From Clostridia bacterium (GTDB lineage Bacteria; Bacillota; Clostridia; UMGS1840), in the NCBI GenBank assembly GCA_045631485.1, contig JAZQUU010000039.1, positions 41,194 to 105,193 of the forward strand: a stretch of DNA of 64,000 bases. Reading direction: 5' to 3'. Each line of letters starts with the position of its first letter. Within the stretch, counting starts at the first letter, position 1. This document shows, piece by piece, positions 33,485 to 51,261 of the stretch. Position numbers and translations under genes: made by a program. The notes below the pieces were generated by a model that was not told the origin of the DNA, did no database searches, and saw nothing but the letters and a program-made list of their open reading frames with translations.

Positions 33485-33504
33485 CGGAAAGGAACCTTAT
33501 TTTT

Positions 33505-33903
33505 ATGAATCCTTATCAATCCTATTCTTCCTTAACTCTTGCCTATGTGGGAGATGCAATCTATGAGGTGTTTATTCGCACAAAATTAACCGAAAACGGG
33601 GATAAAAAAGTAAATCGTTTACATAAAGAAGCAAAAAAATTCGTCAGCGCAAAAGCTCAAAGCCAGATTGTGGAAGCTTTACTGGACACCCTTTCTCCCG
33701 ATGAAATTGATATTTTCAAACGAGGACGTAACACCAAAGTAAATACCAAAGCCAAAAATGCGGATTTTAAAGAATATCATAACGCTACGGGCTTAGAAGC
33801 ATTATTCGGTTATTTGTACCTTTGTAAGAATCAGGAGCGTTTAAAAGAACTGATGGAAAAATCTTATCAGATTGCAAGAGAACTGATGGGAGAAGCCTTA
33901 TGA
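33505..33903 (+). CDS. mrnC: Mini-ribonuclease 3
   Basis: LAYVGDAIYEVFIR and ATGLEALFGYLYL are the Mini-III signatures. Confidence 0.88.
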   Translation: MNPYQSYSSLTLAYVGDAIYEVFIRTKLTENGDKKVNRLHKEAKKFVSAKAQSQIVEALLDTLSPDEIDIFKRGRNTKVNTKAKNADFKEYHNATGLEALFGYLYLCKNQERLKELMEKSYQIARELMGEAL

Positions 33904-34889
33904 GAAAAGATTATACCCTGATGGTATTCAGTAACGGTACATTGGTTCACACAGAAAGTCCGACTCAATGTTTGTTTAACACGCCTCTTTCTTCGTTACC
34001 CGGCAAACGGATTGAGGAACTTTTCATCAGAGATTCCATTGAACAAATCACCAAGTTGGAACCAAATAAAAAGTCTTCCCTGAATATCTGCACCAAACAA
34101 ACAACATCCATCTTTCCTGCACGAGTGGCAAGAATAAAATTTCAAAAGACAGAAACTATTTTGATTTATACCAACGAAAATCTAAATCACACGAATTCGG
34201 ATGTTTCTCCAATTCGGAAGCAATCTGTATTGGAATCAATGCTTTCCCAAGAAAATAAAATTATTTATCAAATGATTGATGAAATGAAAACCACCAGAAA
34301 TCTTGCACAGATTAAGCATCTGAAGAAAGCGTTCTCTGATTTATATCAGAAAATTGATGATTGTGTGGCAAAAATTCTTATGACAAATCCTCTGGAGAAA
34401 TATCACCGGGAATCATTTAACTTTTCTCTCGCGATAAAAAATTATCTGGAAACCTACGAAGCAAATCATCCTGATAATGTCTGGGTTACTTATCGTGAAT
34501 TCAAGTCTGCTTTTGTGCTGGGAAGCCGTGAAAAACTATTTGATTTGATGGACTCATTCTTTTGCACTTTCCAAAACAATGCGGATACAAAAATTATTGT
34601 CCGTTTAATCTCGGAAAATGATGTTGCCACTGCGGACTTTACCGTATTATCCAATGATGTAAGAGCAGAATTTTCCAAAGAACTTACAGATTTTGCTTTA
34701 GATGAAAAGAAGCTTCTTGCAAAGCATGCGGGTTGCGAAGTGAAAACCTATTATCTTCCGAAGCAAGGTTATAAAATGACCATCTCATACGATAGCTATT
34801 CCGGTTATAAACTATACGAACCGGACGAAGAAACAGAAAGGATTGCACCTTATGAGAAAGATGCTCAGCTACTTACGACGAGCGATTGA
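33900..34889 (+). CDS. Hypothetical protein (329 aa) with a PAS-like N-terminus and a degenerate GHKL-like C-terminus
   Basis: The start overlaps the mrnC stop in an ATGA overlap. I recognise no catalytic motifs, so the domain guesses are weak. Confidence 0.45.
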   Translation: MRKDYTLMVFSNGTLVHTESPTQCLFNTPLSSLPGKRIEELFIRDSIEQITKLEPNKKSSLNICTKQTTSIFPARVARIKFQKTETILIYTNENLNHTNSDVSPIRKQSVLESMLSQENKIIYQMIDEMKTTRNLAQIKHLKKAFSDLYQKIDDCVAKILMTNPLEKYHRESFNFSLAIKNYLETYEANHPDNVWVTYREFKSAFVLGSREKLFDLMDSFFCTFQNNADTKIIVRLISENDVATADFTVLSNDVRAEFSKELTDFALDEKKLLAKHAGCEVKTYYLPKQGYKMTISYDSYSGYKLYEPDEETERIAPYEKDAQLLTTSD

Positions 34890-35592
34890 CGATTATCATA
34901 TGATTGCAGAAAATGACGTGATTGCCGTTGGAATATCAGGCGGTAAGGATTCTATCGTTTTATTTCAGGCGATGATTCAACTGAAGCGATTTTACCCAAT
35001 TCCGTTTGAACTGATAGGTATTACGGTTGATTTGGGATTTGAGACACCGCTTAAAACCGATGAAATCCAAAAACTTGCAGAAGAAAATAATATTTCCTAT
35101 CACGTCATCAAAACACAAATTAAGGAAATTGTATTTGATATCCGAAAAGAGGAAAATCCTTGTTCTTTATGTGCCAAACTGAGAAAAGGCGCCTTGATGG
35201 ATTATGCGAAACAATTAGGTTGTAACAAAGTGGCATTAGGGCATCACTATGATGATGTGGTAGAAACCTTTTTTATGAAGTTATTTTATGAAGGAAATGT
35301 CGGATGCTTCTCCCCTGTTACCTATTTAAGCAGGAGAGACATCACCCAGATAAGACCGCTCATCTTTGCTCCCGAAGCAGAAATTAAATCCACTGCCGAA
35401 CGGTTGGAATTGCCCGTATTTAAAAATCCATGTCCCAATGACGGAGAAAGTAAACGGCAGGAAATTAAAGATTTAATTTTTAATTTGCGAAAAGATTATC
35501 CCGATTTAAAAGAAAAAGTGTTTGGCGGATTATGTCGGGCAAAATTATCCGGTTTTACGGATGAAAGAACACCCCGCAAAAAATCCGAGTAA
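34852..35592 (+). CDS. PP-loop ATPase, TtcA-like tRNA thiolation enzyme
   Basis: The PP-loop SGGKDS is present, with CSLCAKLRKG and CPNDG Cys motifs. The ATG lies 9 nt after GAAAGGA. Confidence 0.8.
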   Translation: MRKMLSYLRRAIDDYHMIAENDVIAVGISGGKDSIVLFQAMIQLKRFYPIPFELIGITVDLGFETPLKTDEIQKLAEENNISYHVIKTQIKEIVFDIRKEENPCSLCAKLRKGALMDYAKQLGCNKVALGHHYDDVVETFFMKLFYEGNVGCFSPVTYLSRRDITQIRPLIFAPEAEIKSTAERLELPVFKNPCPNDGESKRQEIKDLIFNLRKDYPDLKEKVFGGLCRAKLSGFTDERTPRKKSE

Positions 35593-35689
35593 CACCATAA
35601 AGTCATATCAAAAATCCCTCTCACCATTTTTTTTAGCAAACATAAAATGGTTAGGGGGATTTTATATTGATTATAAAGAAGGTATCAAA

Positions 35690-35956
35690 ATGAAAACTTC
35701 TCAATATATTGCGGTGTTTCATTCATTATCCTATGCGGGACAAATTCGCAATCAATTTTGGTCAACACATCGTCCCGAGATTATTAAAACTCCCAAAAGC
35801 ATCCACGGCGGATGTTCCTATTCACTCGTCTTTCGGGAGGAACAATTAAATGACATGCTTCGTCTTTTAAAGAAACAAAACAAGGGCTTTCTGGGGATTT
35901 ATTATCAGAAGCCTAATGGTCGTTACGAGGAATTAACCAATGATTTACCTGGATAA
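35690..35956 (+). CDS. DUF3343-like small protein (putative Se/S carrier-like)
   Basis: MKTSQYIAVFHSLSYAGQIRNQF and a size of about 88 aa fit DUF3343. The 56 upstream codons in the ORF track lack coding character. Confidence 0.5.
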   Translation: MKTSQYIAVFHSLSYAGQIRNQFWSTHRPEIIKTPKSIHGGCSYSLVFREEQLNDMLRLLKKQNKGFLGIYYQKPNGRYEELTNDLPG

Positions 35957-37082
35957 TGCAGCAACAAGTAATCCGAAACCTTTTGCCGTAAAAAAAGCAA
36001 TGTGGGATGCGGTGTCAAATGCAGTGAATGTTGGCAGAAATTCCTCGCGACAAGCATTTTATTATGCAGACAAAATTCTGTCTGTACGGGAAAATATCGG
36101 AAAATTGATTGGTGTTTCTAATTATGAAAACATCATTTTCACCATGAATGCAAGTCACGGACTGAATTTTGCCATCAAAGGATTCTTGCCGAATGGCGGA
36201 ACTGTTGTGACCACAGAAACAGAACACAATTCTGTTTTAAGGCAGTTGCTCTCAAATGAAAAATTTTCTGTGACGATTCTGCCGTCAAAAAAAGACAATA
36301 CCCCGGATTTTTCCAAGTTGACCAAATGCGAGTATCCTTATCGGAATTTATTGGTTGTGAATGTTGTTTCCAATGTAACGGGTCTGGCACTTCCCTATCA
36401 ATCAATCTATCAAAAAGCTAATCAACTTGGTTGGACGATTCTGTTTGATTTTTCGCAAGCTATCGGAAATATTGATGTTGATTTATCCAAAATGAATCAT
36501 GTTATGGCGGTATTCAGCGGTCATAAATCATTGTTGGGACCGCAAGGGACAGGAGTTTTGTATGTTTCCAAAGATATTAAGCTTTCCTCGGTTTTAGAAG
36601 GCGGCACAGGAAGTTTGTCCAATGATTTTCATCAACCTGATTTTCTCCCCGACCAATTTGAGGTGGGAACCTTGAACACACCGGGAATTTTAGGCTTGGG
36701 AGAAGGCGTAAAATTTGTTTTAAAAAACTCTCCCAAAGCTCTTTTGGAACACAAACGGGAATTGTGCAAACTTGCATATAGTAATCTGAAAGAAATGAAA
36801 AATATCAAGCTGTACCACAATGGTGATTTTAGTCATCATGTTGGGATTTTATCGTTTAATATTTCTGATTTGCACTCAGAAGAAGCGGCAAATATTCTTT
36901 CAAAAAAATATCATATCAGCATGCGTGGCGGATTTCACTGCGCACCATTAATGCATCGGCAATTGGGAACGAATAACCAAGGAACTGTAAGAATCAGTCC
37001 CGGATATCGCACCACAAAAAACGAAATCCAAAAATTGATTGATGCAATTTATAACATTACAAAAACAGACGGGTTAAGTTAA
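35940..37082 (+). CDS. Class V aminotransferase / cysteine desulfurase family protein
   Basis: The features are IYLDNAATS, a PLP-lysine region SGHKSLLGPQGTG, and a C-terminal GGFHCAP. Confidence 0.85.
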   Translation: MIYLDNAATSNPKPFAVKKAMWDAVSNAVNVGRNSSRQAFYYADKILSVRENIGKLIGVSNYENIIFTMNASHGLNFAIKGFLPNGGTVVTTETEHNSVLRQLLSNEKFSVTILPSKKDNTPDFSKLTKCEYPYRNLLVVNVVSNVTGLALPYQSIYQKANQLGWTILFDFSQAIGNIDVDLSKMNHVMAVFSGHKSLLGPQGTGVLYVSKDIKLSSVLEGGTGSLSNDFHQPDFLPDQFEVGTLNTPGILGLGEGVKFVLKNSPKALLEHKRELCKLAYSNLKEMKNIKLYHNGDFSHHVGILSFNISDLHSEEAANILSKKYHISMRGGFHCAPLMHRQLGTNNQGTVRISPGYRTTKNEIQKLIDAIYNITKTDGLS

Positions 37083-37127: not shown

Positions 37128-37325
37128 TTACTTTTTCCTTTCGGCAAGTTCTTCCTCATAGCATTTTGGGCATCTTGTGAGGGATGATGTGCGGCTTTTT
37201 AATTGAGTCTCCCATGTGTGGTTCTTTTTGCATTTCCACCATACCTTCACATAGGAACTATGTTTCACCGTTTCTGGAGTATTGGGGAAATTCTTTTCAC
37301 GATCCCATTCCTCCAACAGATACAT
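37128..37325 (-). CDS. Small zinc-ribbon protein (DUF4379-like treble clef)
   Basis: EWDREKN...VWWKCKKNHTWE...RCPKC. The start is the ATG 7 nt after AAGGA. Confidence 0.65.
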   Translation of the reverse strand: MYLLEEWDREKNFPNTPETVKHSSYVKVWWKCKKNHTWETQLKSRTSSLTRCPKCYEEELAERKK

Positions 37326-37379
37326 TTTATTTTCCTTGATGCAGAAATCTTTTAAATACACGCGCATCAACCTCCATAA

Positions 37380-38006
37380 TTATGCAAAGGATTTTTTCAC
37401 AACAATCTCAACGTTTTTTCCGCGAACGCCCACAATAATATCGTCGGCAAGTTTTGCAACGATAGAACGTTCCAACTCTGCATATTCGTCTTCTTTTTCT
37501 TCTACTGCTGTTTTATAGCTGAACAAAGACCAGGAACATACATAGCCCGTTTCGTATGCGATTGCAGGATCAATGTAGCCAAAGCCCATATTATAGCCGT
37601 GATAATCATAAAATTCTCCTGCAGGAAGTGTCTGCAGAGTGGAATCGGATGCTGCTAAAAGCATGGTTTCCGCAACTGCTCTGATTTTTCCCATAATACC
37701 TTTTGCTGCGGCATTTTTACCGGATTTTGAAACAGAAATCAGCTCGTCACTTACATCCATGCTCATATCGTCTGCCTTATGCTCTACGTGAAGCTCATAG
37801 TGTGCTCCTTCGTTTTCTGCCCAGAAGCAACCACTGAAATTTTCGATAAGTCCAGGAAGCATTCCGCAAAGTTCTTCTGCCAACAAACGAAGTCTTAATG
37901 CCTTTTTATTCTCCAAAGCGTTGTACGCAGTTACCTTTTCCACCTCAGAAAGTACCGCTTCCAAGCAAGTTAAATCTTCATTTAAGTTACAAATATTTGA
38001 TTTCAA
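37380..38006 (-). CDS. Hypothetical protein (208 aa), last-but-one gene of the signalling operon
   Basis: A TTG start lies 6 nt after AGGAGGAG, 12 nt downstream of the PP2C/HATPase gene. I recognise no family. Confidence 0.55.
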   Translation of the reverse strand: MKSNICNLNEDLTCLEAVLSEVEKVTAYNALENKKALRLRLLAEELCGMLPGLIENFSGCFWAENEGAHYELHVEHKADDMSMDVSDELISVSKSGKNAAAKGIMGKIRAVAETMLLAASDSTLQTLPAGEFYDYHGYNMGFGYIDPAIAYETGYVCSWSLFSYKTAVEEKEDEYAELERSIVAKLADDIIVGVRGKNVEIVVKKSFA

Positions 38007-38018
38007 TTAAATCTCCTC

Positions 38019-40826
38019 CTAACTGAGTGCGATGACAAGAGTCAACACATTTTTTTCATCTTTGTATTCATATTCCATACTCTCCGTCATTTTACGAACC
38101 ATAAATATTCCGAGTCCTCCGATTGCTCTTTCGTCCGCAGAAAGAGTTGTATCAGGTTCCGTTGCATGGAGAGGATTATATGAAATACCGTTATCGGTAA
38201 ATGAAATACGAAGTTTTCCGTTTTCAATACTGTACGAAACAGTTGCTAGAGTTGCCTTACTGTAATTTACGATGTTTGCATAGATTTCATCAAACACAAT
38301 ATTGATTTTGTTTGCGATTTTTGGCATAATTTCGAGCTTTTTGGAAAGCGAATCTGCAAACTCACCAACCGTTGTGTGCGAATCACGATTCGGCACAACC
38401 GAAATACTTTCGTCTCCCAATATTGCGTCAAAATCAAGTGCAAGCATTGTGATATCATCAAACTGCGGAGCAGTACCCACGAATTCATCCACATCTTCCT
38501 TGATAAGCTTACAAAGGCTATCAGGCTTTGTTGATTCAAGTGAATTCACAAAATCAAGAAGCCGCTGTTCTCCGTAAAGCTCGGTGTTGTTATTCGTTGC
38601 TTCAGTAACACCGTCTGTGTAGAGAAAAAGTTTGTCTCCCGGCATAAGCTGCAGTTCGTTTTTACGGTATTTGATACCTTCCATTCCGGCAAGAAGCATT
38701 CCGCTTCTTGCTTTCATATACGAAAATGCTTCGCCGTTTCGTTTGAAAAGTGGTGGATTATGCCCTGCATTGGCAAACTTCATCAGTCCTGTTTTGGTGT
38801 CTAAAATACCAAGCCATGCCGTTACGAACATTCCTGCATCATTATTTTCGCAGAGTTTGTCATTTGCAATGGTAAATATTTCGTCGGGTTCCAATCCTCT
38901 CTCCGCCAAATCTCTGATAACAGTTTTTGCTCTCATCATACACATGGCACCAGGAATCCCTTTCCCGGATACATCCGCAACTAAGAAAGCGATGGTGGAA
39001 TCATTTAACATATAAAAGTCATAGAAATCGCCGCCAACTTCCTTTGCTGTGATCATTTCGGCATAAAGCTTGAACGAATTGCTTTTCGGGAATGTTGCAG
39101 GAAGCGATGAATACTGAATCTGTTTTGCAAATTCAAGTTCCTTGTCGATTCTTGCAGCAGCCTCTTTGATATACCGTTTCAGCGTGCCAACTGTCTGATT
39201 GATGTCATCGGAAAGGGATGCAAACTCCTCATTAGAACGAACATCCACGGTCACATTTAAGTTTCCGTTTGTAATTTCGGCAAGCCCTTTGTTGATTTTT
39301 CTTAAATTATCAATGATAATTCTCTTTATCAAGAAATAAATAAGAACAAACAAAGCTGCAAAAATGAGAATTTCCATAAAGGTGTTCACATACACCGAAG
39401 CTTCTTTCATAAACATAGCTTCCACCTTCGGCATAGCACCAACGATATAATAGCCTTCTACGAAACGATAGGAACAAAGATATTTTTCGTTGTACACTGT
39501 TGATTCAAAAATTTCGCCCTCTTTGATTGTTTCGGGGTCAAAGGTGATACCGATTTTTTGAAGCTCCGCTCCCTCAAAATCACTTCTGTATGTTACAAGA
39601 TTGAAGTTTTCATCGCAGATTGCAACAAATCCATCATTTCCCACATGGCGATTTTTCGATACTGTTTTGACATACTTGTCAATATCGGCACGAAACTGCG
39701 TGCTGTCGTATCCAACTTGAATGAAACCACCATCGGATAATGCAATTGCGCCATATTTTCTGTAAGTAACATCATCATAGGAGGTGGGTCTGTAATCCTG
39801 GATATACTGATCTTTTTTCTCTTCTAAAAGAGCCATCACAAATTCATTTGACTGAGAACCGCTCGCCATTTCATAGCCGATATACTCTTTGTTGTTGGAA
39901 TCTGCAATGTAACCTTTTTCATCGATGATATTGACCTCAATCACATTGTATTTCATAGCCAAAGACGAAAGAGTTGCACCATTTAAGTATTCATCTTTGA
40001 TGCTTTCGGTTTTTTTCAATAGATTGTCATTGGACTCATCCAGGATATCCTGAAACACATCGGTAAGGCTCATTTTTATGGATTTATTTGTTTGAGCCTC
40101 ACTCATACCTGTCTGAATCACCGAAGAAAATGAACTTGTGGCAACAAAGGCAATCACAATACAGATTAAAAGCCAGCTCTGGAATGTCTGTGAGATCTGT
40201 TTTTGTTCTTTTTTGAAATAAAGCCTTTCTCTGCCGATTACAGATACTGCAAAAACGGCAATTCCAACAGCAAAACCGTTACCGATGACCATAGGAAGTG
40301 TGCATATCTTTACAAAATCGAATGCAACCGCCGCATCATCCATATTGGTAAAGAATATCATCAACATATGGAAAACTTCTGTAACCATACCGATACCCAA
40401 CCCATAGAGCCAGGTTGGCTTCTTGTTATCAAACATATACGTTCTGAGTACTGCCGCAATCAAACCGGCAAGAATTGTAGATACCGAGCAGGCAAGTTGC
40501 GTATATGTTCCGGCAAGGCCGAAATAAACTGCTACAAAACGATAAATACCACCAATAAGTCCTGCAATAATTCCTGCAGGAGCACCAAAGATAAGCCCTG
40601 CACACAAAGGTGCGGCGTCTCTCACATTCATGATGGTACCGTCGCCTATATCAAAGCCGCCGAATATTGTGGTTGCGAAAATCGCCATAAGGCCAAAAAG
40701 AACGCCGATGATTATTTGTTTTATTTTATAAGGCGTTTTGAAAAATGCTGTTTTTTTGTCAAGTATGTAGAGAAAAATGGCAAGAAGCGCATTATAGGAT
40801 GCAGACATTATTAAATGTAGTGCCAT
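38019..40826 (-). CDS. Membrane sensor: 5TM-Lyt-type domain + Cache-like ectodomain + HAMP + PP2C (SpoIIE/RsbU-type) phosphatase + C-terminal RsbW/SpoIIAB-like HATPase
   Basis: The N-terminus has multiple TM helices and there is a ~250-aa periplasmic-type segment. A HAMP follows (IIDNLRKINKGLAEITNGNLNV). The PP2C motifs are GGDFYDF, VADVSGKG, LYTDGVTEA and DDITMLAL. The tail is a GHKL domain (TDNGISYNP...GGLGIFMVRK). Confidence 0.85.
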   Translation of the reverse strand: MALHLIMSASYNALLAIFLYILDKKTAFFKTPYKIKQIIIGVLFGLMAIFATTIFGGFDIGDGTIMNVRDAAPLCAGLIFGAPAGIIAGLIGGIYRFVAVYFGLAGTYTQLACSVSTILAGLIAAVLRTYMFDNKKPTWLYGLGIGMVTEVFHMLMIFFTNMDDAAVAFDFVKICTLPMVIGNGFAVGIAVFAVSVIGRERLYFKKEQKQISQTFQSWLLICIVIAFVATSSFSSVIQTGMSEAQTNKSIKMSLTDVFQDILDESNDNLLKKTESIKDEYLNGATLSSLAMKYNVIEVNIIDEKGYIADSNNKEYIGYEMASGSQSNEFVMALLEEKKDQYIQDYRPTSYDDVTYRKYGAIALSDGGFIQVGYDSTQFRADIDKYVKTVSKNRHVGNDGFVAICDENFNLVTYRSDFEGAELQKIGITFDPETIKEGEIFESTVYNEKYLCSYRFVEGYYIVGAMPKVEAMFMKEASVYVNTFMEILIFAALFVLIYFLIKRIIIDNLRKINKGLAEITNGNLNVTVDVRSNEEFASLSDDINQTVGTLKRYIKEAAARIDKELEFAKQIQYSSLPATFPKSNSFKLYAEMITAKEVGGDFYDFYMLNDSTIAFLVADVSGKGIPGAMCMMRAKTVIRDLAERGLEPDEIFTIANDKLCENNDAGMFVTAWLGILDTKTGLMKFANAGHNPPLFKRNGEAFSYMKARSGMLLAGMEGIKYRKNELQLMPGDKLFLYTDGVTEATNNNTELYGEQRLLDFVNSLESTKPDSLCKLIKEDVDEFVGTAPQFDDITMLALDFDAILGDESISVVPNRDSHTTVGEFADSLSKKLEIMPKIANKINIVFDEIYANIVNYSKATLATVSYSIENGKLRISFTDNGISYNPLHATEPDTTLSADERAIGGLGIFMVRKMTESMEYEYKDEKNVLTLVIALS

Positions 40827-40859
40827 ATTTTCATCTCCTTATCAAAATTATCTTCGTTC

Positions 40860-41156
40860 TTATTCGATGGTAAGAATATCTAAAAATCCGGTAATATCAA
40901 ACACTTCCATAATGCTGTCGTTCACTCCGGTAAGCTTCATGGAACCCTGCTGATTCATTGTTTTTTGTGCTTTTAAAATCACTCGAAGTCCTGCGGAAGA
41001 AACATATTCCAAATTGGTAAAATCAAAAGTAAGTTCCTTAAGATTCGCAAGAACTGCATCCAGTTCGTTTTCCAATTCCGGTGCGGTTTGTGTATCAAGT
41101 CTTCCTGATACGATGAGGGTCGCTGTGTCGTTTCCGATTTTCTTTTCAATAGTCAT
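40860..41156 (-). CDS. STAS-domain anti-sigma-factor antagonist-like protein
   Basis: VSGRLDTQTAPELE...LEYVSSAGLRVIL carries the conserved phosphorylatable Ser context. Confidence 0.88.
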   Translation of the reverse strand: MTIEKKIGNDTATLIVSGRLDTQTAPELENELDAVLANLKELTFDFTNLEYVSSAGLRVILKAQKTMNQQGSMKLTGVNDSIMEVFDITGFLDILTIE

Positions 41157-41190
41157 TTTTAAAATCTCCTTTTTTATGATAATGTTATGA

Positions 41191-41715
41191 TTACTGTTTC
41201 CACGATTCGATTGGCTCGTAGAGAAATGATAGCTCTGCCATGGGAGTTTTTAAACTCTCGGCAAGTTTTTTAACAGCCTTTCGGATATCGGGCGAAAAAT
41301 CCAGATACCAATCAATGGTTTCCAGGATGTATTTTCGCTTAAATTCCTCATCTGTTACGATTGCACACTGTAAATTATGCAATCTGTCTGCCGCTTTTAC
41401 TACATAAGCAATGGGATTTTGACGGATGGCATTGACATATTCTGCCATAATATATCCCTTTTTCTTGGTCAGCAATTTCACCGCCGTAAGGATTTCATTG
41501 TTTCCGTATTGCAAAATTTCTTCTTCGGTTGCATCGGTATCCTCCAATAAATCGTGAAAAAGTGCTGCTATCTGATAATGTTCGCTGAGCCCCGCATCCT
41601 TCACAATTTCCGAAACCGCTATCGGATGGGTGATATAATCATCTCCGCCGATACGCTTTTGACCTTTATGCTTTTTCGTTGCAAATTTTAGAGCAAGCTC
41701 ATAGCTTTCACTCAT
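41191..41715 (-). CDS. HD-domain small alarmone hydrolase (Mesh1/SpoT-hydrolase-like)
   Basis: The motifs are KHKGQKR..GDDYITHPIAV and LFHDLLEDT. The ATG overlaps the upstream stop (TAATG). Confidence 0.8.
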   Translation of the reverse strand: MSESYELALKFATKKHKGQKRIGGDDYITHPIAVSEIVKDAGLSEHYQIAALFHDLLEDTDATEEEILQYGNNEILTAVKLLTKKKGYIMAEYVNAIRQNPIAYVVKAADRLHNLQCAIVTDEEFKRKYILETIDWYLDFSPDIRKAVKKLAESLKTPMAELSFLYEPIESWKQ

Positions 41716-42773
41716 TAGCACTCCTCCTTCTGACTAAGAAGGTATTTTGCCTGTCTTTCCGCTTTTTCCTTGGTTCCCAAAGAAATTTTTAAGAATGCTG
41801 TCATTTTATCAAAATTATAGTTTTTTCTAAGAAGCTCTGCACGGCACAAGAAACGAAGTGCAACACTTGATGAAACGATATCCAGGTCTGCTGCAGACAA
41901 AGCTTTCTTTGCAAGTTTCATTGCAAGGTCATGATTTTCTTTGATCATCACTTCAATATCGCCAAGTTTGGTGATACCTAAAAATGCAAGCTGCGGAATA
42001 TAGCTTTCGGGGTCAATCTCTCTGATTTCTGCACCTGAAATGGCGGCAATTTCCTTAATTAAGCCCTGCATTTTTCGGTTGTTTAAGACATATTCGTTTA
42101 ACGAAATCATATTGATTGAAACATCGTCTGCATCATCTGTGATAATTCGTTGTCTGATATCTTCGGTATATCCCACCATATTGTCACGTGCACGCACAAA
42201 TTCATCATCTGCAAGCTCGAGTAATCCTGCAAGACGGGCAAACTGTCGATTAATTTCTCTGGGAACACCAAAATCACTCTTATATCCGATATCGTGGTGA
42301 ATTGCCGACCAGGCGTGCTGAAGAATGGTTCTTATCTGCACCTCAAATTTCTTTCCGCAGATTTCATCGGGCCACTTATCTCCAAACGGTAGTGAACAGA
42401 TGTAATGAAGAGACAGATATCCAAACGAATCTTCCTTGATAAGAGCTCTTTTATCGGAAGAATTTTCCCGGTCAATCACAAAATTCTCTTCCACCTTTTG
42501 ACCGATTTTATCAATTTCATCGGCTAAAAAGCAAACCACACGGCAACCGAGAATATCGGTGATATCTTCCAGGGTGTTGTATCCATCACCCTTTCTTTCA
42601 AGCTTTCCGGCAAGACTTTTTTCTTCTTTTACACGGTGTTCAACAGCTAAAACCGTAAGTCCAAGCTCCATTACAATATCCGAAAGCATGGTATGTACCG
42701 TGTCACCCAAGGTTACAAAGTCATTCCTTTGCTTCCTGTAATCCTCTAAAATTAATCTGCATTTTAAGTTCAT
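41715..42773 (-). CDS. RelA/SpoT-synthetase-domain protein (small alarmone synthetase) with a ~150-aa C-terminal extension
   Basis: The synthetase motifs are KEEKSLAGKLERK, DILGCRVV, GYLSLHYI and EVQIRTILQHAW. There is no HD, TGS or ACT domain. Confidence 0.85.
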   Translation of the reverse strand: MNLKCRLILEDYRKQRNDFVTLGDTVHTMLSDIVMELGLTVLAVEHRVKEEKSLAGKLERKGDGYNTLEDITDILGCRVVCFLADEIDKIGQKVEENFVIDRENSSDKRALIKEDSFGYLSLHYICSLPFGDKWPDEICGKKFEVQIRTILQHAWSAIHHDIGYKSDFGVPREINRQFARLAGLLELADDEFVRARDNMVGYTEDIRQRIITDDADDVSINMISLNEYVLNNRKMQGLIKEIAAISGAEIREIDPESYIPQLAFLGITKLGDIEVMIKENHDLAMKLAKKALSAADLDIVSSSVALRFLCRAELLRKNYNFDKMTAFLKISLGTKEKAERQAKYLLSQKEEC

Positions 42774-42785
42774 AATTCCTCCTCC

Positions 42786-43742
42786 TTATAACAAACCTAA
42801 CATCAGCCGGAACAAATCATAAATTGCGCCGCCCAATGCTCCGATTAAAAGTACCATAAACAAATATAAAAACATACTGGTTTTACTGATTTTATTATGT
42901 TCAATCGTGAAGTAAAAATTGTAATGTGCTTTCATATTGGCGTCACGTTCTTCCACCCACTGATAGGTGATGGCATCCGAACAGTTATACCCTTTCGGTG
43001 CATAATTTCGGTTTAGCTCCGCTTCCAGGCGCCTGATACGGTAACAGGTTGAATCGTTCATTTCATACTCATCGCCGAGAGAAATGGTAACCAATGCCTT
43101 TCTGATGCGTTGCTCCTGCAAATCTTCAATTTCATTGATTTCAGGCGGCAGAAGACGTGCTTCATTGATTCTGATGGAATATCCGTATTTTTCAGAAATG
43201 ATGGGACTTTGAATCAAAGAATTGATTTTATCAAACATACCGCCCACATCAATCACCGGAGCAAACACCACGTCCAGGGTTTTATGGGGTATTCTGAATA
43301 TAAGATACGCTTCATCGGATGTTATACATTCCTTAATAAATTCAAAATCAAAGGTAATCACCGTTCCGTATGAAACTGTTTCTGCTTTAATAAATTCATC
43401 GGCAAGATTGATAAGACTTACGGTTCTACCGTCATATCGAAGCTCCGAAGTGTATTTGGTTTTCTCAGAATCCACTTTTCCGTTAGTGTTAAACAACGCT
43501 CGAAGTGCCGAACTGTCGGAGAGCATATAAGATAAATCGGTGATTTCCGTTTCCTCTATCATAAAAGGAACAAAAATGTTAACTGCTTTCGTTTCTTTTG
43601 CTCCATACACACGCACGCTGATATCCACAAAGCTTTGGCCCTTTGGATTAATCCATTCATTTAAGTAAATTGTGCTTCTGTCGTCACCATCTATCCATAG
43701 CGCCCAACCATCATCGGCAAAGCGTTTTTTTTTATTTCCCAA
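42786..43742 (-). CDS. Hypothetical protein (318 aa) with a single C-terminal TM anchor
   Basis: A TTG start lies 9 nt after GGAGG and overlaps the GGDEF gene end by 11 nt. The C-terminus is MFLYLFMVLLIGALGGAIYDLF. I recognise no family. Confidence 0.6.
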   Translation of the reverse strand: MGNKKKRFADDGWALWIDGDDRSTIYLNEWINPKGQSFVDISVRVYGAKETKAVNIFVPFMIEETEITDLSYMLSDSSALRALFNTNGKVDSEKTKYTSELRYDGRTVSLINLADEFIKAETVSYGTVITFDFEFIKECITSDEAYLIFRIPHKTLDVVFAPVIDVGGMFDKINSLIQSPIISEKYGYSIRINEARLLPPEINEIEDLQEQRIRKALVTISLGDEYEMNDSTCYRIRRLEAELNRNYAPKGYNCSDAITYQWVEERDANMKAHYNFYFTIEHNKISKTSMFLYLFMVLLIGALGGAIYDLFRLMLGLL

Positions 43743-45315
43743 GCTTGGTTGCCTCCTTCATTTTCCGTTTGTTTTCATACATCGCATCGTCGGCTTTGTT
43801 AAATACATCTATAAAGTTTTTATCTTTTTTAGAATCGTATCTTGCAAAACCTTTTGCAATGTTTACGGGAATAGCTTCCTTCTCTGTATCTACAATCCTA
43901 TTTCCGCATTCTTCATCAAATTTTTTAAGAAGTAACTCTACTTCATCAAGGTCTCTGTTTTGTAAAATTGCCAAAAACTCGTCACCGCCGATTCTGAAAA
44001 CCGGACTTCTTTTAAACACATCCGATATCACGCTTGCCGCACCTACAATCAACTTGTTACCTACATCGTGACCATATCTGTCGTTGGTTTCCTTGAGATA
44101 ATTAAGGTCAAAAACCATAACGCCGAAGGCAATTTCTTTGGTTTCGATTTCTTTATCAAAATCTGTGATCCACGCCCAATATGAATTGGTGTTTCTAAGC
44201 CCTGTGAGAGTGTCGCGATATGCCATGAGATGTTGCAGTTTTTCGTGCTCCTTAAGCTGCAAAGTCATATTTTCAAACGCAGTACTTAAAAGCTTTATTT
44301 CATATGTATTGCTATGCACAATATCAACATCATAATCTCTGTTTGAAAGTTTTACCGATGCATCGGTCAGCTTTTTTAAGGGATACACAATTTTTTTCAC
44401 AATAATGATTGCTATCAAAGAAAACATCACCGCAAGAATCAGCACAACAAAAAGGATTTTTAATGCGATATCATAACGAATCTGTCTGATATCTTTATAG
44501 CTTGCAGACAGGATAAGAGTCATTCCGTTGGTTAATTCTTCAGATACACTTAAGTACTCCTCCGGATGCTCATGAAGTTTTGTATCTTCGGCATGCTCCA
44601 AATTATACACATCGGCACCTTCAAACTCCAAATGAGCAAATCCGTTTTCATAAATTTTGATATTATGAACCTTATCGGTCAAAATGCTATAGTCAAAGTC
44701 CATACCAACAATGCCAACAAACTCATTATCGTAATATAACGGTACTACATAAGAAATCATCAGGATGTTGTTGTTTTTATTGTAATAAGGCAACATCCAA
44801 ACGGGTTTTCCTGCTTCAAGCGGCTGCCAGTACCATCCCACATGCTCGGTATCAGATTTATCATAACGCGAAATATCAGTAGGTTCAAAGCGCATAAATC
44901 CGTCTTCCCTTTTTACTCTACTGTAAAACAACCCGAATGTGTTGTGCGAAAGTTCAGGTGCAAATCTGAAATAATACGCCACCGCACCATCAGTATTATT
45001 TGCTACATCAATAAACATTTCATCGGAACGCTCTAAAATATCGGCCTGTCTTTTCTCATCCTCAATATCGGCTTTACTGTTTATAAAATCGAGCACATAG
45101 CTTTCCATAATATGCACTGATTTTTCCATATCACCAAAAATATCATTGATTTGAGAAGCATCTTTTTCGCAGGTGACATTTATATAATCTTCTGTCTGAT
45201 GCTGCACAAACTGATCGACCTCATATATGCTTAATCCACCTATGAACACCGTAATAGCCAACATTGCGGATATAACGGTCATTAAAACTTTAAATTGCAT
45301 TGATTGTATTTTCAC
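43732..45315 (-). CDS. Membrane diguanylate cyclase (Cache-like sensor + HAMP + GGDEF)
   Basis: Two TM helices flank a ~260-aa ectodomain. The C-terminal GGDEF domain has RIGGDEF. It has a GTG start. Confidence 0.85.
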   Translation of the reverse strand: MKIQSMQFKVLMTVISAMLAITVFIGGLSIYEVDQFVQHQTEDYINVTCEKDASQINDIFGDMEKSVHIMESYVLDFINSKADIEDEKRQADILERSDEMFIDVANNTDGAVAYYFRFAPELSHNTFGLFYSRVKREDGFMRFEPTDISRYDKSDTEHVGWYWQPLEAGKPVWMLPYYNKNNNILMISYVVPLYYDNEFVGIVGMDFDYSILTDKVHNIKIYENGFAHLEFEGADVYNLEHAEDTKLHEHPEEYLSVSEELTNGMTLILSASYKDIRQIRYDIALKILFVVLILAVMFSLIAIIIVKKIVYPLKKLTDASVKLSNRDYDVDIVHSNTYEIKLLSTAFENMTLQLKEHEKLQHLMAYRDTLTGLRNTNSYWAWITDFDKEIETKEIAFGVMVFDLNYLKETNDRYGHDVGNKLIVGAASVISDVFKRSPVFRIGGDEFLAILQNRDLDEVELLLKKFDEECGNRIVDTEKEAIPVNIAKGFARYDSKKDKNFIDVFNKADDAMYENKRKMKEATKLGK

Positions 45316-45352
45316 TTGTGATTAACCTTTCCGCTCATCGTATAAACCCGCT

Positions 45353-45372
45353 ATGACAAACCTATAATAAAT
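45353..45372 (-). promoter_or_regulatory. Direct-repeat motif copy 1 (degenerate second unit), upstream of the GGDEF gene
   Basis: The plus strand reads ATGACAAACCTATAATAAAT. The flank AAACCCGYTATGACAAACCTAT is shared with copy 3. Confidence 0.45.
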
Positions 45373-45919
45373 TTGAGATGCGTTTTTTTGCGTTATCCAT
45401 AATTTCTTGCACATTTGCGCCGAAGATATCAAGCCCTTCTGCCGAGTAAAAGCTGATATCCGAAATACCGAAAAAGTTTTCCGAAAGTGCTTTTACATAG
45501 TCAAAACCGAAATTGTTGTTGCCGATATACCCACCCGAGGTAGTGATATAATATAACTTTTTAGCTTTGCATTTACTTACGGGGCGACCTTCTTCGGAAT
45601 ATTCGAAAGTGATTCCCGAAACTGTGATATTTTCCAAATAAATTTTTAAAATAGCAGGAAACGACAAATCCCAATACGGTGCCGCAATCACAATCATATC
45701 CACATTTGCAAACTGCTTTGCATATTTCATTTCCTCCTCGGAAACCGTATGCAATGCTCTTTTATCGATGTCTTGATTACAAAGGGGTAAAATCTTCTCT
45801 TGATACAAATGAACTTCGATGACTTCCCCGTTCAAGCCATTAAGTAAATGCCTTGAAAGTTCATCGGTTCTTGAATTTGGCCTTGCACAAGCATTGATAA
45901 ACAAGATTTTATTCTTCAT
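45362..45919 (-). CDS. Flavodoxin-like fold NAD(P)H-dependent FMN oxidoreductase
   Basis: Its ~185 aa, with the N-terminus ILFINACARPNSRT and ITTSGG, fit the NAD(P)H dehydrogenase (quinone)/azoreductase-like family. Confidence 0.7.
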   Translation of the reverse strand: MKNKILFINACARPNSRTDELSRHLLNGLNGEVIEVHLYQEKILPLCNQDIDKRALHTVSEEEMKYAKQFANVDMIVIAAPYWDLSFPAILKIYLENITVSGITFEYSEEGRPVSKCKAKKLYYITTSGGYIGNNNFGFDYVKALSENFFGISDISFYSAEGLDIFGANVQEIMDNAKKRISNLL

Positions 45920-45928
45920 GTAGTTCTC

Positions 45929-46222
45929 CTATTTCAGCATTTCTAAAAGGCCTGTCATTTCAAAAATCTCGCAAACGAGGTCGTTTGCTTTTTCAATCCG
46001 CATTGTCCCTTGATTGAAATTCATTTTTTTATAGGCAGCCAGCAGAACTCGAATTCCTGAGGAGGATATATATTCCAACTCGGACATATCAAAAACAAGC
46101 TCTTTTGTGTTATCGGAAAGTTCATCTACTATCGATTGAAGATTCGGTGCAGTTGTTGTGTCGAGTCTTCCTGCGATTGACAAAGTAACAAGTTCAAAAT
46201 CTCGTTCCACATTGATTGTCAT
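45929..46222 (-). CDS. STAS-domain anti-sigma-factor antagonist-like protein (second copy)
   Basis: IAGRLDTTTAPNLQ...LEYISSSGIRVLL. The start lies 6 nt after GGAGA. Confidence 0.85.
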   Translation of the reverse strand: MTINVERDFELVTLSIAGRLDTTTAPNLQSIVDELSDNTKELVFDMSELEYISSSGIRVLLAAYKKMNFNQGTMRIEKANDLVCEIFEMTGLLEMLK

Positions 46223-46274
46223 AAAAATTCTCCTTTCAAAGAACATAACATAAATATAAAATAGCATATCCGAT

Positions 46275-46294
46275 ATGACAAACCTATGACAAAT
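46275..46294 (-). promoter_or_regulatory. Direct-repeat motif copy 2 with an embedded -35, upstream of the STAS/flavoprotein genes
   Basis: The plus strand reads ATGACAAACCTATGACAAAT. On the minus strand this is TTTGTCATAGG-TTTGTCATATC, then 17 nt to TATATT. Confidence 0.55.
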
Positions 46295-46348
46295 TCAAAT
46301 TTATATACAAAAAATACGGCCGGATGATTCCGACCGTAAACATATTTA

Positions 46349-47128
46349 TTAATTTGTTCCAAGAAGCAGCGAGAGGGTATCTTCTGCCCAGGAATACTGT
46401 GTCATATACTCACCATGAAACTGAGGCATTCCTGTCTTTAAATACCTATGATAATCGCAGTTGATTCTGGAAGGGTCAATTCGGTAATGATAGCCGTCCT
46501 GACAAAAGACATTTTGGGCACCTACATTGGCAAGTGCTTTTTTTAAGTCTCCCACAAGATGTCTTAAATAATCCATATTTTTCACATCATCGGTGTTCTC
46601 AGGCCACATCACGGCACAGATTTGTTTTCCCGTCATCCCGGCACCGTTTCTGTCCACAAGAACAGCAAAAAGTTCTTTTGCTTTGGTGCGCTTAAAGGTA
46701 AGTGCCTCTCCGTTTTTTAAAACTTCGAAATTGCCGAAGCATTTCACGTCTAAAAGCGAAGCATTAGGTTTTTTGCTTTTAATATGGTCAATTTCTTTTT
46801 GAACCGCCTCCGGCGTGATTGGTTTCATAAGATATCCGCTGCAGCGAAGCTGTATGGCATCCAGGGCGTACTCCTCATAACCTGTGCAAAAAACAATTTT
46901 ACATTCGGGATGTAACTCAGTAATCTTTTCTGCCAAAGCAAGACCACCCATCCCGCGCATATTGATATCTAAAAAAGCAACATCTGCACAATTATGAGAA
47001 ATCCACTCCAAAGCGGCGGAGCAGACAGAAAAATCATAAACCTCTTTGATATCGGTCGATGCCTTCACAATATCCGTAAGAGCGTTGAGCATTGGTCTTT
47101 CATCATCTACTGTGATTGCTATCATCAT
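46349..47128 (-). CDS. Response regulator: REC domain + OmpR/SARP-like winged-helix DNA-binding domain
   Basis: The REC domain has DDERPML...FLDINMRGMGG...KP. The C-terminus FGNFEVLKNGEALTFKRTKAKELFAVLV resembles SARP/BTAD-type wHTH domains. The start lies 6 nt after AGGAGG. Confidence 0.8.
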   Translation of the reverse strand: MMIAITVDDERPMLNALTDIVKASTDIKEVYDFSVCSAALEWISHNCADVAFLDINMRGMGGLALAEKITELHPECKIVFCTGYEEYALDAIQLRCSGYLMKPITPEAVQKEIDHIKSKKPNASLLDVKCFGNFEVLKNGEALTFKRTKAKELFAVLVDRNGAGMTGKQICAVMWPENTDDVKNMDYLRHLVGDLKKALANVGAQNVFCQDGYHYRIDPSRINCDYHRYLKTGMPQFHGEYMTQYSWAEDTLSLLLGTN

Positions 47129-48965
47129 CGGTCCCCTCCTTTGGTATTTGTATCGTTGCCTTTGTGCCTTTTCCGATTTCACTTTCTATGGTAAGTGTTC
47201 CGTCGCACATTGCTTCAATTCGACCTCGGATATTTTTGATCCCCACATGCTTTAATTCATCATAGCCTGCATTCATATCAAAACCAACGCCATCATCGGT
47301 CACTTCAACAACATACGAGCTATCTGTCTCAAAAGCGGAGATTGTAACAATTCCGCCCTCTTCCAATCCCATAAGACCGTGCTTGATTGCATTTTCCACA
47401 AGAGGCTGAACCGAAAGTGCGGGCAAGAGAAATTCCACCGAACGAAGGTCATATTGTATGGTCATATCAGGGAAACGCACCTGCTCTATGTCGGTATAAT
47501 GCTTTACGTGATTCATTTCCTGCGAGAATCTGATAGGTTTCGCATTATCGAGTTCGCTGAAGTTCCCTCTTAAATACAAACTGAAATTACGAACAAGTTT
47601 GGAAGCTTCTTTTGGCTCCGTGATACAAAGTTGCTCAATGGTTCCCAATGTGTTATAAATAAAATGAGGCTGAATCTGACTTATCATAGTGGCGATACGG
47701 CTTTCAGTAAGTTCTGCTTTTAAAATCAGTTTTTCCGCTTCCAGTTCTCTTGCTCTGATTGCCGCGTTTAAGTTTTGCGGAACAACCTTTAAAAGCACAA
47801 TTACCGATGCCACAAAAACAAGGATAAATACAATTTCTGAAACAATTCCGCCCTGCCATAAGCCAAAACCGATTCCTGCTACATCAATGAGAAAGGAAAC
47901 CACTGGCATCGCGGCAAAAACGGAAAGTATTTTTTCATTCTTCTCCCCTTTTGCAAAACGAATTGCAAAAAGAATTATCATCACAATGCAAATCAAGCTC
48001 TGCATCGTTGCCCATATCGGTAATGCATCATAAAACTTAACATCGCAAGCTATTGGAGCAACCATACACCCAAGGGTTAAAAGCAATGAAAAAGAAGTCA
48101 AAATATTTCCGATGGTTTTAGATTTTCCCTCAAACCATCCGCCAACAACAGCCGTGATTGCAAGCATATAAAGCATAACAGAGCCCGTTACCATACGAGT
48201 GTTGAATTTAATAATTTCACTAAAGAACATCACTCCGTGGCCCTTAAATATGAAGTAGATCCCTGCCGAGAAAATACCAAAGCCCACAAGCCACAGATTT
48301 TTGCTGCCTTCAATATGAATCAGTATCGAGAATATCGCAGTCCCCAAAAGCATAAAGGCAAACAAAATCAGAGCAATGCCGAAGATTCTGTGAAAACTTC
48401 CTCGGTTTAATGTATCTCTCTCAAAAACAGTTCCGCCATAGGTGCTTAAATTATTTAAAAAATCATCAACAGCTCCGGAGTTTCCGAATTTATGAGGATT
48501 TTTCAATCTGATTGTGATTTCATCCGACCCCTGACATTCATAGCCGATATACATTTTACCGCAAAGATCCTCACCAATCAGATCGCTCTCGGCATCAAAA
48601 GGACGAAAGATTTCTCCGTCTTCTGAAATTTCGCCGCCAATGTGGTTAAAATAAAATGCCAAAATGGTACCTTGAGATGCATTGCCCACAACCTCTCCCG
48701 AAGCAGGAACAAAAAGCTTAAAATTTCCTTTCAGCGTCACATCTCCCTTGTCGGCAGGAATATGCTCTCCTTTGACATAAGGCTTAAAATCTCCGTCAGC
48801 AACTTGATACTCACCCTGAAATTGGGCAGAAAGATATATGGCATTCATCGCCTGATTCCCAAAATTTCTTCCGGTACATACAAATGTACAAAGAACAACG
48901 GCAAACAGAGCGATACAAACACCAATCACGATTTTATTTTTCAAGTTGTTTTTATTAGATTTCAT
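47103..48965 (-). CDS. Sensor histidine kinase, LytS/YesM-type (His_kinase PF06580-like + HATPase) with an ectodomain and a 7-TM module
   Basis: The H-box region is QIQPHFIYNTL, the N-box ENAIKHG and the G-box DDGVGF...GIKNIRGR. The N-terminus has a signal-anchor plus a ~180-aa ectodomain and 7 TM helices. The gene overlaps the regulator gene. Confidence 0.85.
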   Translation of the reverse strand: MKSNKNNLKNKIVIGVCIALFAVVLCTFVCTGRNFGNQAMNAIYLSAQFQGEYQVADGDFKPYVKGEHIPADKGDVTLKGNFKLFVPASGEVVGNASQGTILAFYFNHIGGEISEDGEIFRPFDAESDLIGEDLCGKMYIGYECQGSDEITIRLKNPHKFGNSGAVDDFLNNLSTYGGTVFERDTLNRGSFHRIFGIALILFAFMLLGTAIFSILIHIEGSKNLWLVGFGIFSAGIYFIFKGHGVMFFSEIIKFNTRMVTGSVMLYMLAITAVVGGWFEGKSKTIGNILTSFSLLLTLGCMVAPIACDVKFYDALPIWATMQSLICIVMIILFAIRFAKGEKNEKILSVFAAMPVVSFLIDVAGIGFGLWQGGIVSEIVFILVFVASVIVLLKVVPQNLNAAIRARELEAEKLILKAELTESRIATMISQIQPHFIYNTLGTIEQLCITEPKEASKLVRNFSLYLRGNFSELDNAKPIRFSQEMNHVKHYTDIEQVRFPDMTIQYDLRSVEFLLPALSVQPLVENAIKHGLMGLEEGGIVTISAFETDSSYVVEVTDDGVGFDMNAGYDELKHVGIKNIRGRIEAMCDGTLTIESEIGKGTKATIQIPKEGTDDDSNHSR

Positions 48966-49002
48966 AGCAATCATTCTCCGAACCGGTATTTCTATTCGTG
49001 GA

Positions 49003-49266
49003 TTACAAACTCAACAATATGATAAGCGCTGCCAAAAAAACCGCTCCTGCAATCGCAACATAAGACAATGCGCGTTTTACTTTCCAGTAGGAAAACGCCT
49101 CGCATACACACACAACGATTATGGCAATACAGGTAATCAAATCTGCTGAACCTACTTTTCCTGCTCTTTCCAACGCTTGAAAAATCAGATACACCAATAA
49201 TGCAATTCCCGCAATAATGTCCATAACTTTTTGAAATGCAGTTTTTTCACTCCATTTTTGATTCAT
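49003..49266 (-). CDS. Small membrane protein (3 TM)
   Basis: The sequence is hydrophobic and lies upstream of the kinase gene on the same strand. I place the start at the ATG (MNQKW). Confidence 0.5.
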   Translation of the reverse strand: MNQKWSEKTAFQKVMDIIAGIALLVYLIFQALERAGKVGSADLITCIAIIVVCVCEAFSYWKVKRALSYVAIAGAVFLAALIILLSL

Positions 49267-49298
49267 GGTGAACACCTCTTTCGTATATTTTATCAGAT

Positions 49299-51209: not shown

Positions 51210-51261
51210 AACTGCTTGCCCCTTTTTTATTGTTCAATTAAATACATTGCATCTTAATTTT

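Follow-up and report, generated by a model that had tools for sequence, protein, structure and literature searches.

A small alarmone synthetase and hydrolase gene pair travelling with partner-switching genes in Clostridia and Bacteroidales: a candidate sigma-less partner switch

The known inputs to small alarmone synthetases (SASs) are transcription, allosteric control by pppGpp or RNA in the case of RelQ, and antitoxins or phage proteins in the case of toxic SASs (toxSAS). A partner switch built from a PP2C phosphatase, a STAS protein and an RsbW-like kinase normally controls a sigma factor. Among the described systems closest to the locus reported here, RelP and RelQ are reported to be non-toxic, and ATfaRel is a small alarmone hydrolase (SAH) that acts as the antitoxin of FaRel (PMC7229694). 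Partner switches with a second-messenger synthase as output are represented by SiaABCD and HptB-HsbR-HsbA-HsbD of Pseudomonas aeruginosa, in which the cyclases SiaD and HsbD are switched on by SiaC and HsbA, respectively (PMC7647112, PMC8457831). In a 64,000-nucleotide stretch of DNA from a Clostridia bacterium (assembly GCA_045631485.1, contig JAZQUU010000039.1, positions 41,194 to 105,193 of the forward strand; hereafter the window), a SAS gene overlaps an SAH gene within a string of signalling genes. An earlier reading of these letters (the original prediction) had likened the pair to a toxSAS toxin-antitoxin module and kept a regulated, non-toxic alarmone node as its fallback. It is the fallback that the evidence favors, and we argue, with somewhat better than even confidence, that a partner-switching system lacking a sigma factor has this pair as its output, and that the pair is not an autonomous toxin-antitoxin module. 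A full-text literature search returned no paper linking SASs to partner switching, STAS, PP2C or RsbW, and partner-switch control of alarmone enzymes looks like an undescribed control mode.

The genes on which this reading turns, and the extra domain of the synthetase, are the following.

42773 to 41715, minus strand: SAS, 352 amino acids (aa), with a RelA_SpoT domain (PF04607)
41718 to 42131, minus strand: family-specific C-terminal domain of the SAS (residues ~215-352), about 140 aa, no fold match
41715 to 41191, minus strand: SAH, 174 aa, with an HD_4 domain (PF13328); its ATG overlaps the SAS stop
41156 to 40860, minus strand: single-domain STAS protein (RsbV/SpoIIAA-like), 98 aa, PF01740 at 55.3 bits
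40826 to 38019, minus strand: membrane sensor, 935 aa, with 5TMR-LYT (PF07694), HAMP, SpoIIE-type PP2C (PF07228) and HATPase_c_2 (PF13581) domains

The overlapping minus-strand pair with its TAATG junction is real. The SAS starts at an ATG at 42773 with AGGAGGAGG directly 5' of it, and its TAA stop (41717-41715) has one base in common with the SAH start codon, an ATG at 41715-41713 with GGAGGAG ahead of it. An automatic open reading frame (ORF) caller chose an alternative in-frame GTG at 41721, but we take the ATG as the SAH start because it better fits the ribosome-binding site. The predicted two-gene core with an overlapping SAH is also conserved: of 36 related loci in which the sequence runs on for 600 nt or more past the SAS, 35 have an SAH near it, abutting or overlapping the SAS stop in 32 and at most about 1 kb away in three more (L017, L034 and L047), while the stretch covered at L048 contains no SAH. 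Since this adjacency is kept among relatives, as is protein sequence (SAS and SAH are each 70-93% identical across species), the two are not a chance pair of ORFs.

The conserved unit extends beyond these two genes. Relatives of the SAS were found in 43 loci from ruminant and gut Clostridia metagenome-assembled genomes (MAGs); co-occurrence was counted on loci found via the SAS itself, with no formal background model. In most Clostridia loci a STAS gene lies 3' of the SAH, and the order SAS, SAH, STAS persists in relatives whose SAS is as little as 56% identical. The side on which the PP2C-kinase sensor lies varies: downstream in arrangements of the window type, and upstream in a Christensenellaceae-type arrangement (unk318-sensor-STAS-unk208-SAS-SAH-STAS). 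Bacteroidales relatives, at 36-40% SAS identity, carry the same kit in at least four gene orders. These include SAS-SAH-APH-(dCache-PP2C-kinase)-STAS, where APH is an aminoglycoside/choline-kinase-like protein; (PP2C-kinase)-STAS-SAS-APH-SAH; and, at L104 and L105, a separate kinase of 136 aa followed by (dCache-HAMP-PP2C)-STAS-SAS-(SAH-APH fusion). There are reduced forms as well, SAS-SAH-APH-PP2C and a bare SAS-SAH. At L104 and L105 the SAS thus stands directly after the switch genes, as sigB does after rsbV-rsbW. The orthologous sensors in the Bacteroidales operons are of the dCache type. The SAH-APH fusion (L104:6573-7982 and L105:9086-10495) is a protein of 469 aa whose parts are encoded by adjacent genes in other Bacteroidales. 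Elsewhere in Bacteroidales (G482:C158:3117-3824), a second, distant SAS-like match lies within a 907-aa multi-domain open frame.

In a maximum-likelihood tree, every SAS linked to SAH or switch genes falls in one clade, with a Shimodaira-Hasegawa-like approximate likelihood ratio support (SH-aLRT) of 98, and of 86 after more representatives were included; this clade is separate from a clade of stand-alone genes. Inside the Bacteroidales part of the switch-linked clade, one protein of 521 aa (P0151) is a fusion of HATPase_c_2 with a full-length SAS, a Rosetta-stone pointer that hints at contact between kinase and SAS. A second protein, P0122 (528 aa, on one 3.3-kb Logan contig), consists of SAS, C-terminal domain and HD_4 in that order, although it may be a one-base assembly frameshift instead of a real fusion, because the SAS and SAH genes overlap. 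The main argument that switch and alarmone enzymes work together is that their linkage outlasts changes of gene order, the splitting and joining of domains, and a move from one phylum to another, through which the GGDEF and LytS-type genes that neighbor them in the window are not kept.

Together, the STAS protein, the PP2C domain and the RsbW-like kinase domain make up a complete partner-switching set. The STAS gene begins 34 nt past the SAH, and nine orthologues from two phyla all keep the Ser-Ser (S53, S54) of its phosphorylation motif. The sensor matches PF07228 over the full profile at 177 bits, PF07694 at 91 bits and PF13581 at 49 bits, and the N, G1 and G2 boxes of the RsbW-like kinase domain at its C terminus (E45, N49, D76, G78 and the GGLG box) are likewise invariant across two phyla. 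ORF listings and Pfam scans revealed no sigma factor among the operon genes; the co-conserved candidate for the output-protein slot of the switch is the SAS, which P0151 joins to the kinase domain. The set resembles RsbU/RsbV/RsbW-sigmaB and SpoIIE/SpoIIAA/SpoIIAB-sigmaF of Bacillus in its PP2C, its STAS phospho-serine and its GHKL kinase with intact ATP-binding boxes. It differs from them in that the neighboring slot holds the SAS and no sigma factor, in that the window copy fuses phosphatase and kinase in one membrane sensor, and in that the proposed output is enzymatic (a nucleotide second messenger) and not transcriptional. With SiaABCD and HsbR-HsbA-HsbD it would share a PP2C, a kinase and a STAS-like protein that govern a second-messenger synthase by protein contact; however, the output there is a diguanylate cyclase making cyclic di-GMP (c-di-GMP), whereas the output proposed for the window system is an alarmone synthetase that has its own hydrolase, and the components are not orthologous.

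As the original prediction held, the SAS has a RelA/SpoT synthetase fold followed by a C-terminal extension, put at ~150 aa there and at about 140 aa here. Its sole Pfam match is to PF04607 over residues 46-166 (68.4 bits, E 8e-19; cut-off 27 bits). Across 31 aligned relatives at 36-91% identity there is no variation in the synthetase motifs RxKxxxSxxxK, DxxGxR, the G-loop GYxSxH, ExQIRT (here EVQIRT) and HxxYK, so that the protein combines the domain and the catalytic motifs of the RelA/SpoT homologue (RSH) synthetase superfamily. The SAH matches PF13328 (54.8 bits, E 1e-14) and the N-terminal hydrolase region of TIGR00691 (E 1e-24), and its HP, HD, ED and DRLHN motifs align with the hydrolase sites of Rel and MESH1, as befits a SpoT/Mesh1-type HD protein; its similarity to the (p)ppApp hydrolase 7smg (E 2e-11) is about equal to that with MESH1. 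To judge from these motifs, both enzymes look active.

Several comparisons bear on the family to which the synthetase belongs. A single-sequence search gave RelP/RelQ structures at E ~1e-11 and CapRel at 7e-3, and the SAS family profile run against PDB gave RelP at 5.8e-21, RelQ at ~1e-18, CapRel at 1.3e-4, FaRel2 at 0.15 and long Rel at 0.42; of the toxSASs, this comparison covered CapRel and FaRel2. The AlphaFold2 model of the SAS has a predicted local distance difference test score (pLDDT) of 89 and a predicted template modelling score (pTM) of 0.63, its inter-domain geometry being uncertain. In Foldseek searches RelP/RelQ ranked first, and residues ~1-200 superposed on B. subtilis RelP 6fgk with a template modelling (TM) score of 0.81, while in whole-chain comparison to CapRel (7ztb, 9erv) only the synthetase part superposed (TM ~0.4, root-mean-square deviation 14-22). 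By sequence and by model, then, the synthetase domain (residues ~1-211) is RelP/RelQ-like and much nearer RelP/RelQ than CapRel or FaRel2. With RelP and RelQ (YwaC and YjbM of B. subtilis, RelP of S. aureus) it shares the synthetase fold including the flanking helices (TM 0.7-0.8) and the catalytic motifs, and it differs from them by the extra 140-aa C-terminal domain and by its pairing with an SAH and switch genes. Orthology with RelP/RelQ was considered and rejected: the SAS scores 50.5 bits against the NCBIfam YjbM model NF053588, whose cut-off is 320 bits, it has 352 aa with an extra domain, and no characterised SAS is close to it (20-26% identity). Neither SAS nor SAH has an equivalog match in NCBIfam, and the cluster name of distant SAS relatives, 'putative GTP pyrophosphokinase', is uninformative. 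A subgroup of Firmicutes SASs is named 'cloRel' in Atkinson 2011 but is not described there; the window SAS is not assigned to it.

The source genome, a 1.85-Mb MAG that is 95% complete, has two further synthetase genes, one for a long Rel of 725 aa and one for a RelP/Q-type SAS of 230 aa, and long tree branches separate the window SAS from the latter. With these already in the genome, the window SAS is a third, specialised synthetase and the SAH a second hydrolase. The bifunctional long Rel/SpoT proteins likewise oppose a synthetase to an HD hydrolase in fixed proportion, and P0122 even fuses both; the window version, however, is split, with synthetase first and hydrolase second, lacks the ribosome-sensing TGS/ACT domains, and is presumably controlled by a phospho-switch and not by the ribosome.

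Modelled alone, the C-terminal domain is compact and helical with a small sheet (pLDDT 91, pTM 0.85). The extension has no Pfam match even at E<=10, and a fold search with its model turned up nothing significant in PDB (best E 0.69, TM 0.38) or BFVD. A likeness to the pseudo-zinc-finger sensor of CapRel, which the original prediction had proposed looking for, was not borne out, CapRel being absent among the fold matches of this domain.

We infer the binding partners, the product and the direction of control as follows, whereas anatomy, motifs, cross-phylum linkage and the kinase-SAS fusion are observed. The SAS would make a (p)ppGpp-type 3'-pyrophosphorylated nucleotide, as its RelP/RelQ-like fold and full set of catalytic motifs suggest. 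Translation of the SAH would be coupled to the SAS stop and the SAH would hydrolyse the SAS product, so that basal expression would yield little net alarmone. The 935-aa sensor would read a signal through 5TMR-LYT and HAMP and set the phospho-state of the STAS protein by its PP2C and RsbW-like kinase domains; the kinase domain would keep the SAS inactive, probably via the family-specific C-terminal domain, following the logic of RsbV/RsbW/sigma-B. Dephosphorylated STAS would then displace the SAS, and an outside signal would become an alarmone pulse, ended by the SAH. That the SAS sits in the slot of the sigma factor, with a sensor that turns an extracellular or envelope signal directly into a ribosome-independent (p)ppGpp-type pulse, a C-terminal domain that docks the kinase and an SAH that serves as off-switch, seems to us an evenly balanced proposition. 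The specific wiring in which the kinase sequesters the SAS is more tentative, and we give it roughly half the credence of the general claim, by which the switch has the pair as its output.

SAS and SAH lie in the middle of a string of eight minus-strand genes, from 45315 to 37128, packed with gaps of at most 34 nt or with overlaps, and by this spacing the string is probably one transcript. Its other members, a second STAS gene and the island that carries them all are listed here.

45315 to 43732, minus strand: first gene, dCache-HAMP-GGDEF diguanylate cyclase (PF00990 at 84 bits, PF22673, HAMP)
43742 to 42786, minus strand: 318-aa protein with a C-terminal membrane anchor, 12-nt gap upstream of the SAS
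38006 to 37380, minus strand: 208-aa protein travelling with the module, unmatched
37370 to 37128, minus strand: last gene, treble-clef zinc-finger protein (DUF4379), 80 aa, PF14311 at 58.7 bits
46267 to 45929, minus strand: second STAS paralogue, 112 aa, PF01740 at 59.6 bits, upstream of a flavodoxin-like gene
~37130 to 51250, no strand assigned: accessory signalling island of ~14 kb with the whole set aboard, shared at 75-81% nucleotide identity

The GGDEF gene overlaps the next gene by 11 nt, and its GGDEF motif, read in the translation, is intact, with no RxxD I-site five residues upstream; the window operon could raise c-di-GMP and alarmone jointly. This gene is confined to the window-type arrangement and is absent from the Christensenellaceae-type and Bacteroidales loci. 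The 318-aa protein has no match in Pfam (even at E<=10, none worth naming) and no PDB sequence match, and most Clostridia loci with the module have a version of it, 44-89% identical. The 208-aa protein shows no similarity to Pfam (E<=10), to PDB or to HATPase/RsbW-like profiles, and its gene lies between a STAS gene and the SAS in other Clostridia. In some relatives (L009:9608-12991, L013:6155-6841) the SAH and STAS genes are parted by inserts; these encode a DUF975 membrane protein of 228 aa, sometimes joined by an M13 peptidase of 888 aa that has an SLH domain. The window also has a cassette junction element of ~270 nt, which is absent from the related loci and from the island and does not explain these inserts.

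The two STAS proteins of the island are 47% identical and have the same Ser-Ser motif. In a scan for promoters and terminators, promoter predictions were no better than those in shuffled sequence; the best promoter-like sites (46253-46292) lie just 5' of the second STAS gene, and a strong terminator-like hairpin (46315-46338, 10 pairs plus a T-run) lies 3' of the response-regulator gene, which together suggests separate transcription units on the island. The island holds a LytS-type kinase, a REC regulator, the two STAS genes, the flavodoxin-like protein, the GGDEF protein, SAS and SAH, and the PP2C-kinase sensor, and no integrase was noticed in the part examined. It is common to two same-genus genomes and one genome of another family, at the nucleotide identity given above. 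Its left flank (33000-37064) is present in same-genus genomes that have no island, and is found on other contigs in carriers. Searches for the SAS found it in 2 of 10 further genomes of the same genus, in 10 of 401 genomes sampled from the phylum and in 6 of 301 genomes sampled from Bacteroidales. The system is thus an uncommon, horizontally exchanged accessory trait.

Several observations weigh against a partner switch that ends in the SAS. L106 and L108 have SAS and SAH without a switch gene in the stretch covered, L109/L044 retains STAS as the sole switch gene, and at L057 a PP2C is present but neither a kinase nor STAS; from these reduced loci it follows that the core may work without the full switch, or that the switch genes lie elsewhere. 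The kinase-SAS fusion is known from one representative. The GGDEF protein in the same string of the window could be the real target of the switch, and the geometry between the two domains of the SAS is uncertain in its AlphaFold2 model (pTM 0.63).

The alternative that survives best, which we regard as possible though unlikely, keeps the same parts and wires them differently: unphosphorylated STAS would bind the SAS and activate it directly, or would inhibit the SAH, and the kinase domain would merely be the kinase of the STAS protein. Nearly all arrangements place STAS directly 3' of the SAH or 5' of the SAS, STAS is what L109/L044 retains where kinase and PP2C are both missing from the vicinity, STAS is present as two paralogues on the island, and SiaC-SiaD and HsbA-HsbD are precedents (PMC7647112, PMC8457831). 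On the other hand, the P0151 fusion points to the kinase domain as the partner of the SAS, and operons of the L057 type have no STAS at all.

It is also doubtful, although conceivable, that the product is something other than (p)ppGpp, such as (pp)pApp or another 3'-pyrophosphorylated nucleotide, with accessory kinases shaping a different nucleotide pool. The APH-like kinase that is fused or adjacent to the SAH in Bacteroidales speaks for this, as do a cytidylate-kinase-like gene in one operon, the SAH's being as near to 7smg as to MESH1, and the divergence of the SAS family from characterised SASs noted above. Against it stand the best fold and profile matches, which are to the GTP/GDP-using RelP/RelQ, the retention of the G-loop tyrosine and of all motifs, and a Clostridia version without extra kinases. 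The cytidylate-kinase-like gene just mentioned lies between SAS and SAH at L047.

We consider it improbable that the pair is a toxSAS-type toxin-antitoxin or abortive-infection module, in which a growth-toxic SAS would act via a burst of alarmone or (pp)pApp or via tRNA pyrophosphorylation, the SAH would be a type IV antitoxin, the C-terminal domain would be an auto-inhibitory sensor as in fused CapRel, and the signalling neighbors would be bystanders. Some features are shared. FaRel/ATfaRel and the fused CapRel SJ46 (PMC7229694) offer an adjacent or overlapping partner, an SAH in the case of FaRel, and ATfaRel is a precedent for an SAH antitoxin; fused CapRel has an N-terminal synthetase with an extra C-terminal domain; and toxSASs share the patchy, horizontally moved distribution seen here in the sampled genomes and in the transfer of the island between families. 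The overlapping two- to three-gene layout with a potential neutralising partner, typical of toxSASs, is present and its SAS-SAH core is conserved, but the conserved unit is larger and includes STAS, PP2C and kinase. A partial PADLOC match to the candidate defence gene PDC-S33 (59.5 bits) speaks for this reading but was rejected as an assignment: it covers profile positions 41-175 of 349, the synthetase domain, and recurs in eight relatives including prophage-borne ones; PADLOC gave no match for the SAH or the 318-aa protein.

Phage links of related enzymes also favor a toxic role. The sister clade of stand-alone genes, from other Bacillota and from 26 IMG/VR contigs, encodes proteins of 350-375 aa that share the two-domain layout at 33-45% identity, and no SAH, STAS or PP2C was found near them; since these genes stand alone, the enzyme can exist without an adjacent neutraliser. 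One of them, a 366-aa SAS on an IMG/VR contig (L084:5992-7092), lies on the opposite strand between baseplate(-assembly) and tail-completion genes of a P2-like prophage, a moron-like position typical of morons, with no SAH or antitoxin-like neighbor detected. At L044 (5755-7690; SAS 56% identical), SAS-SAH-STAS comes immediately 3' of phage lysis genes, a cassette of SPP1-type holin, CHAP amidase and GH25 lysozyme, with no PP2C or kinase within 8 kb. The sister clade keeps a conflict-system ancestry, or a latent toxicity of the scaffold, plausible, and together with the patchy distribution it leaves a toxin-antitoxin-like or defence role conceivable. Stand-alone enzymes carried by prophages may have been the source of the two-domain SAS scaffold, or may have received it from the switch-linked form. 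Among distant Bacillota relatives, the synthetase is fused to SLOG (LSDAT_prok) and RyR domains in proteins of 864-880 aa (L075:6174-8768 and L076:6048-8690); the neighbor at L076 is another RyR-domain protein, of 846 aa, and a short HD-like ORF lies upstream at L075.

Against membership of the toxSAS family stand the synthetase domain, whose profile is far nearer RelP/RelQ (E 6e-21), reported as non-toxic in PMC7229694, than CapRel (1e-4) or FaRel2 (0.15), to which similarity is weak or absent, and a C-terminal domain unlike the CapRel sensor; the PDC-S33 match is limited to the synthetase part. Nor does the notion of a free two-gene module fit, as the pair never moves alone and is accompanied across two phyla by the STAS/PP2C/RsbW-like set, embedded in a conserved signalling operon where toxSASs are stand-alone units of two or three genes. 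The window copy is surrounded by signalling genes, with no defence or phage genes, the Bacteroidales operons are set among housekeeping genes, and the switch genes co-vary with the pair, which would not be expected of bystanders.

Finally, adjacency without coupling, by which a self-buffered SAS/SAH node under transcriptional control alone would merely sit amid assorted signalling genes (GGDEF, LytS-type kinase, STAS/PP2C), gains something from an island rich in unrelated signalling genes and from the DUF975 and M13 peptidase genes that part SAH from STAS in some relatives, but is very improbable given a linkage that survives shuffling, domain fission and fusion and the jump between phyla when GGDEF and LytS-type genes do not.

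A first consequence is one of caution, in that not every overlapping SAS-SAH pair should be called a toxin-antitoxin system. The post-translational control of SASs and their input signals are largely an open field, and the system described here is compact, its hosts being anaerobes from two phyla that are abundant in rumen and gut. If the SAS and SAH are indeed the output of a partner switch, these bacteria would have a direct route from sensor to alarmone, partner switching would gain a new class of output, and a widespread C-terminal domain would have a function.

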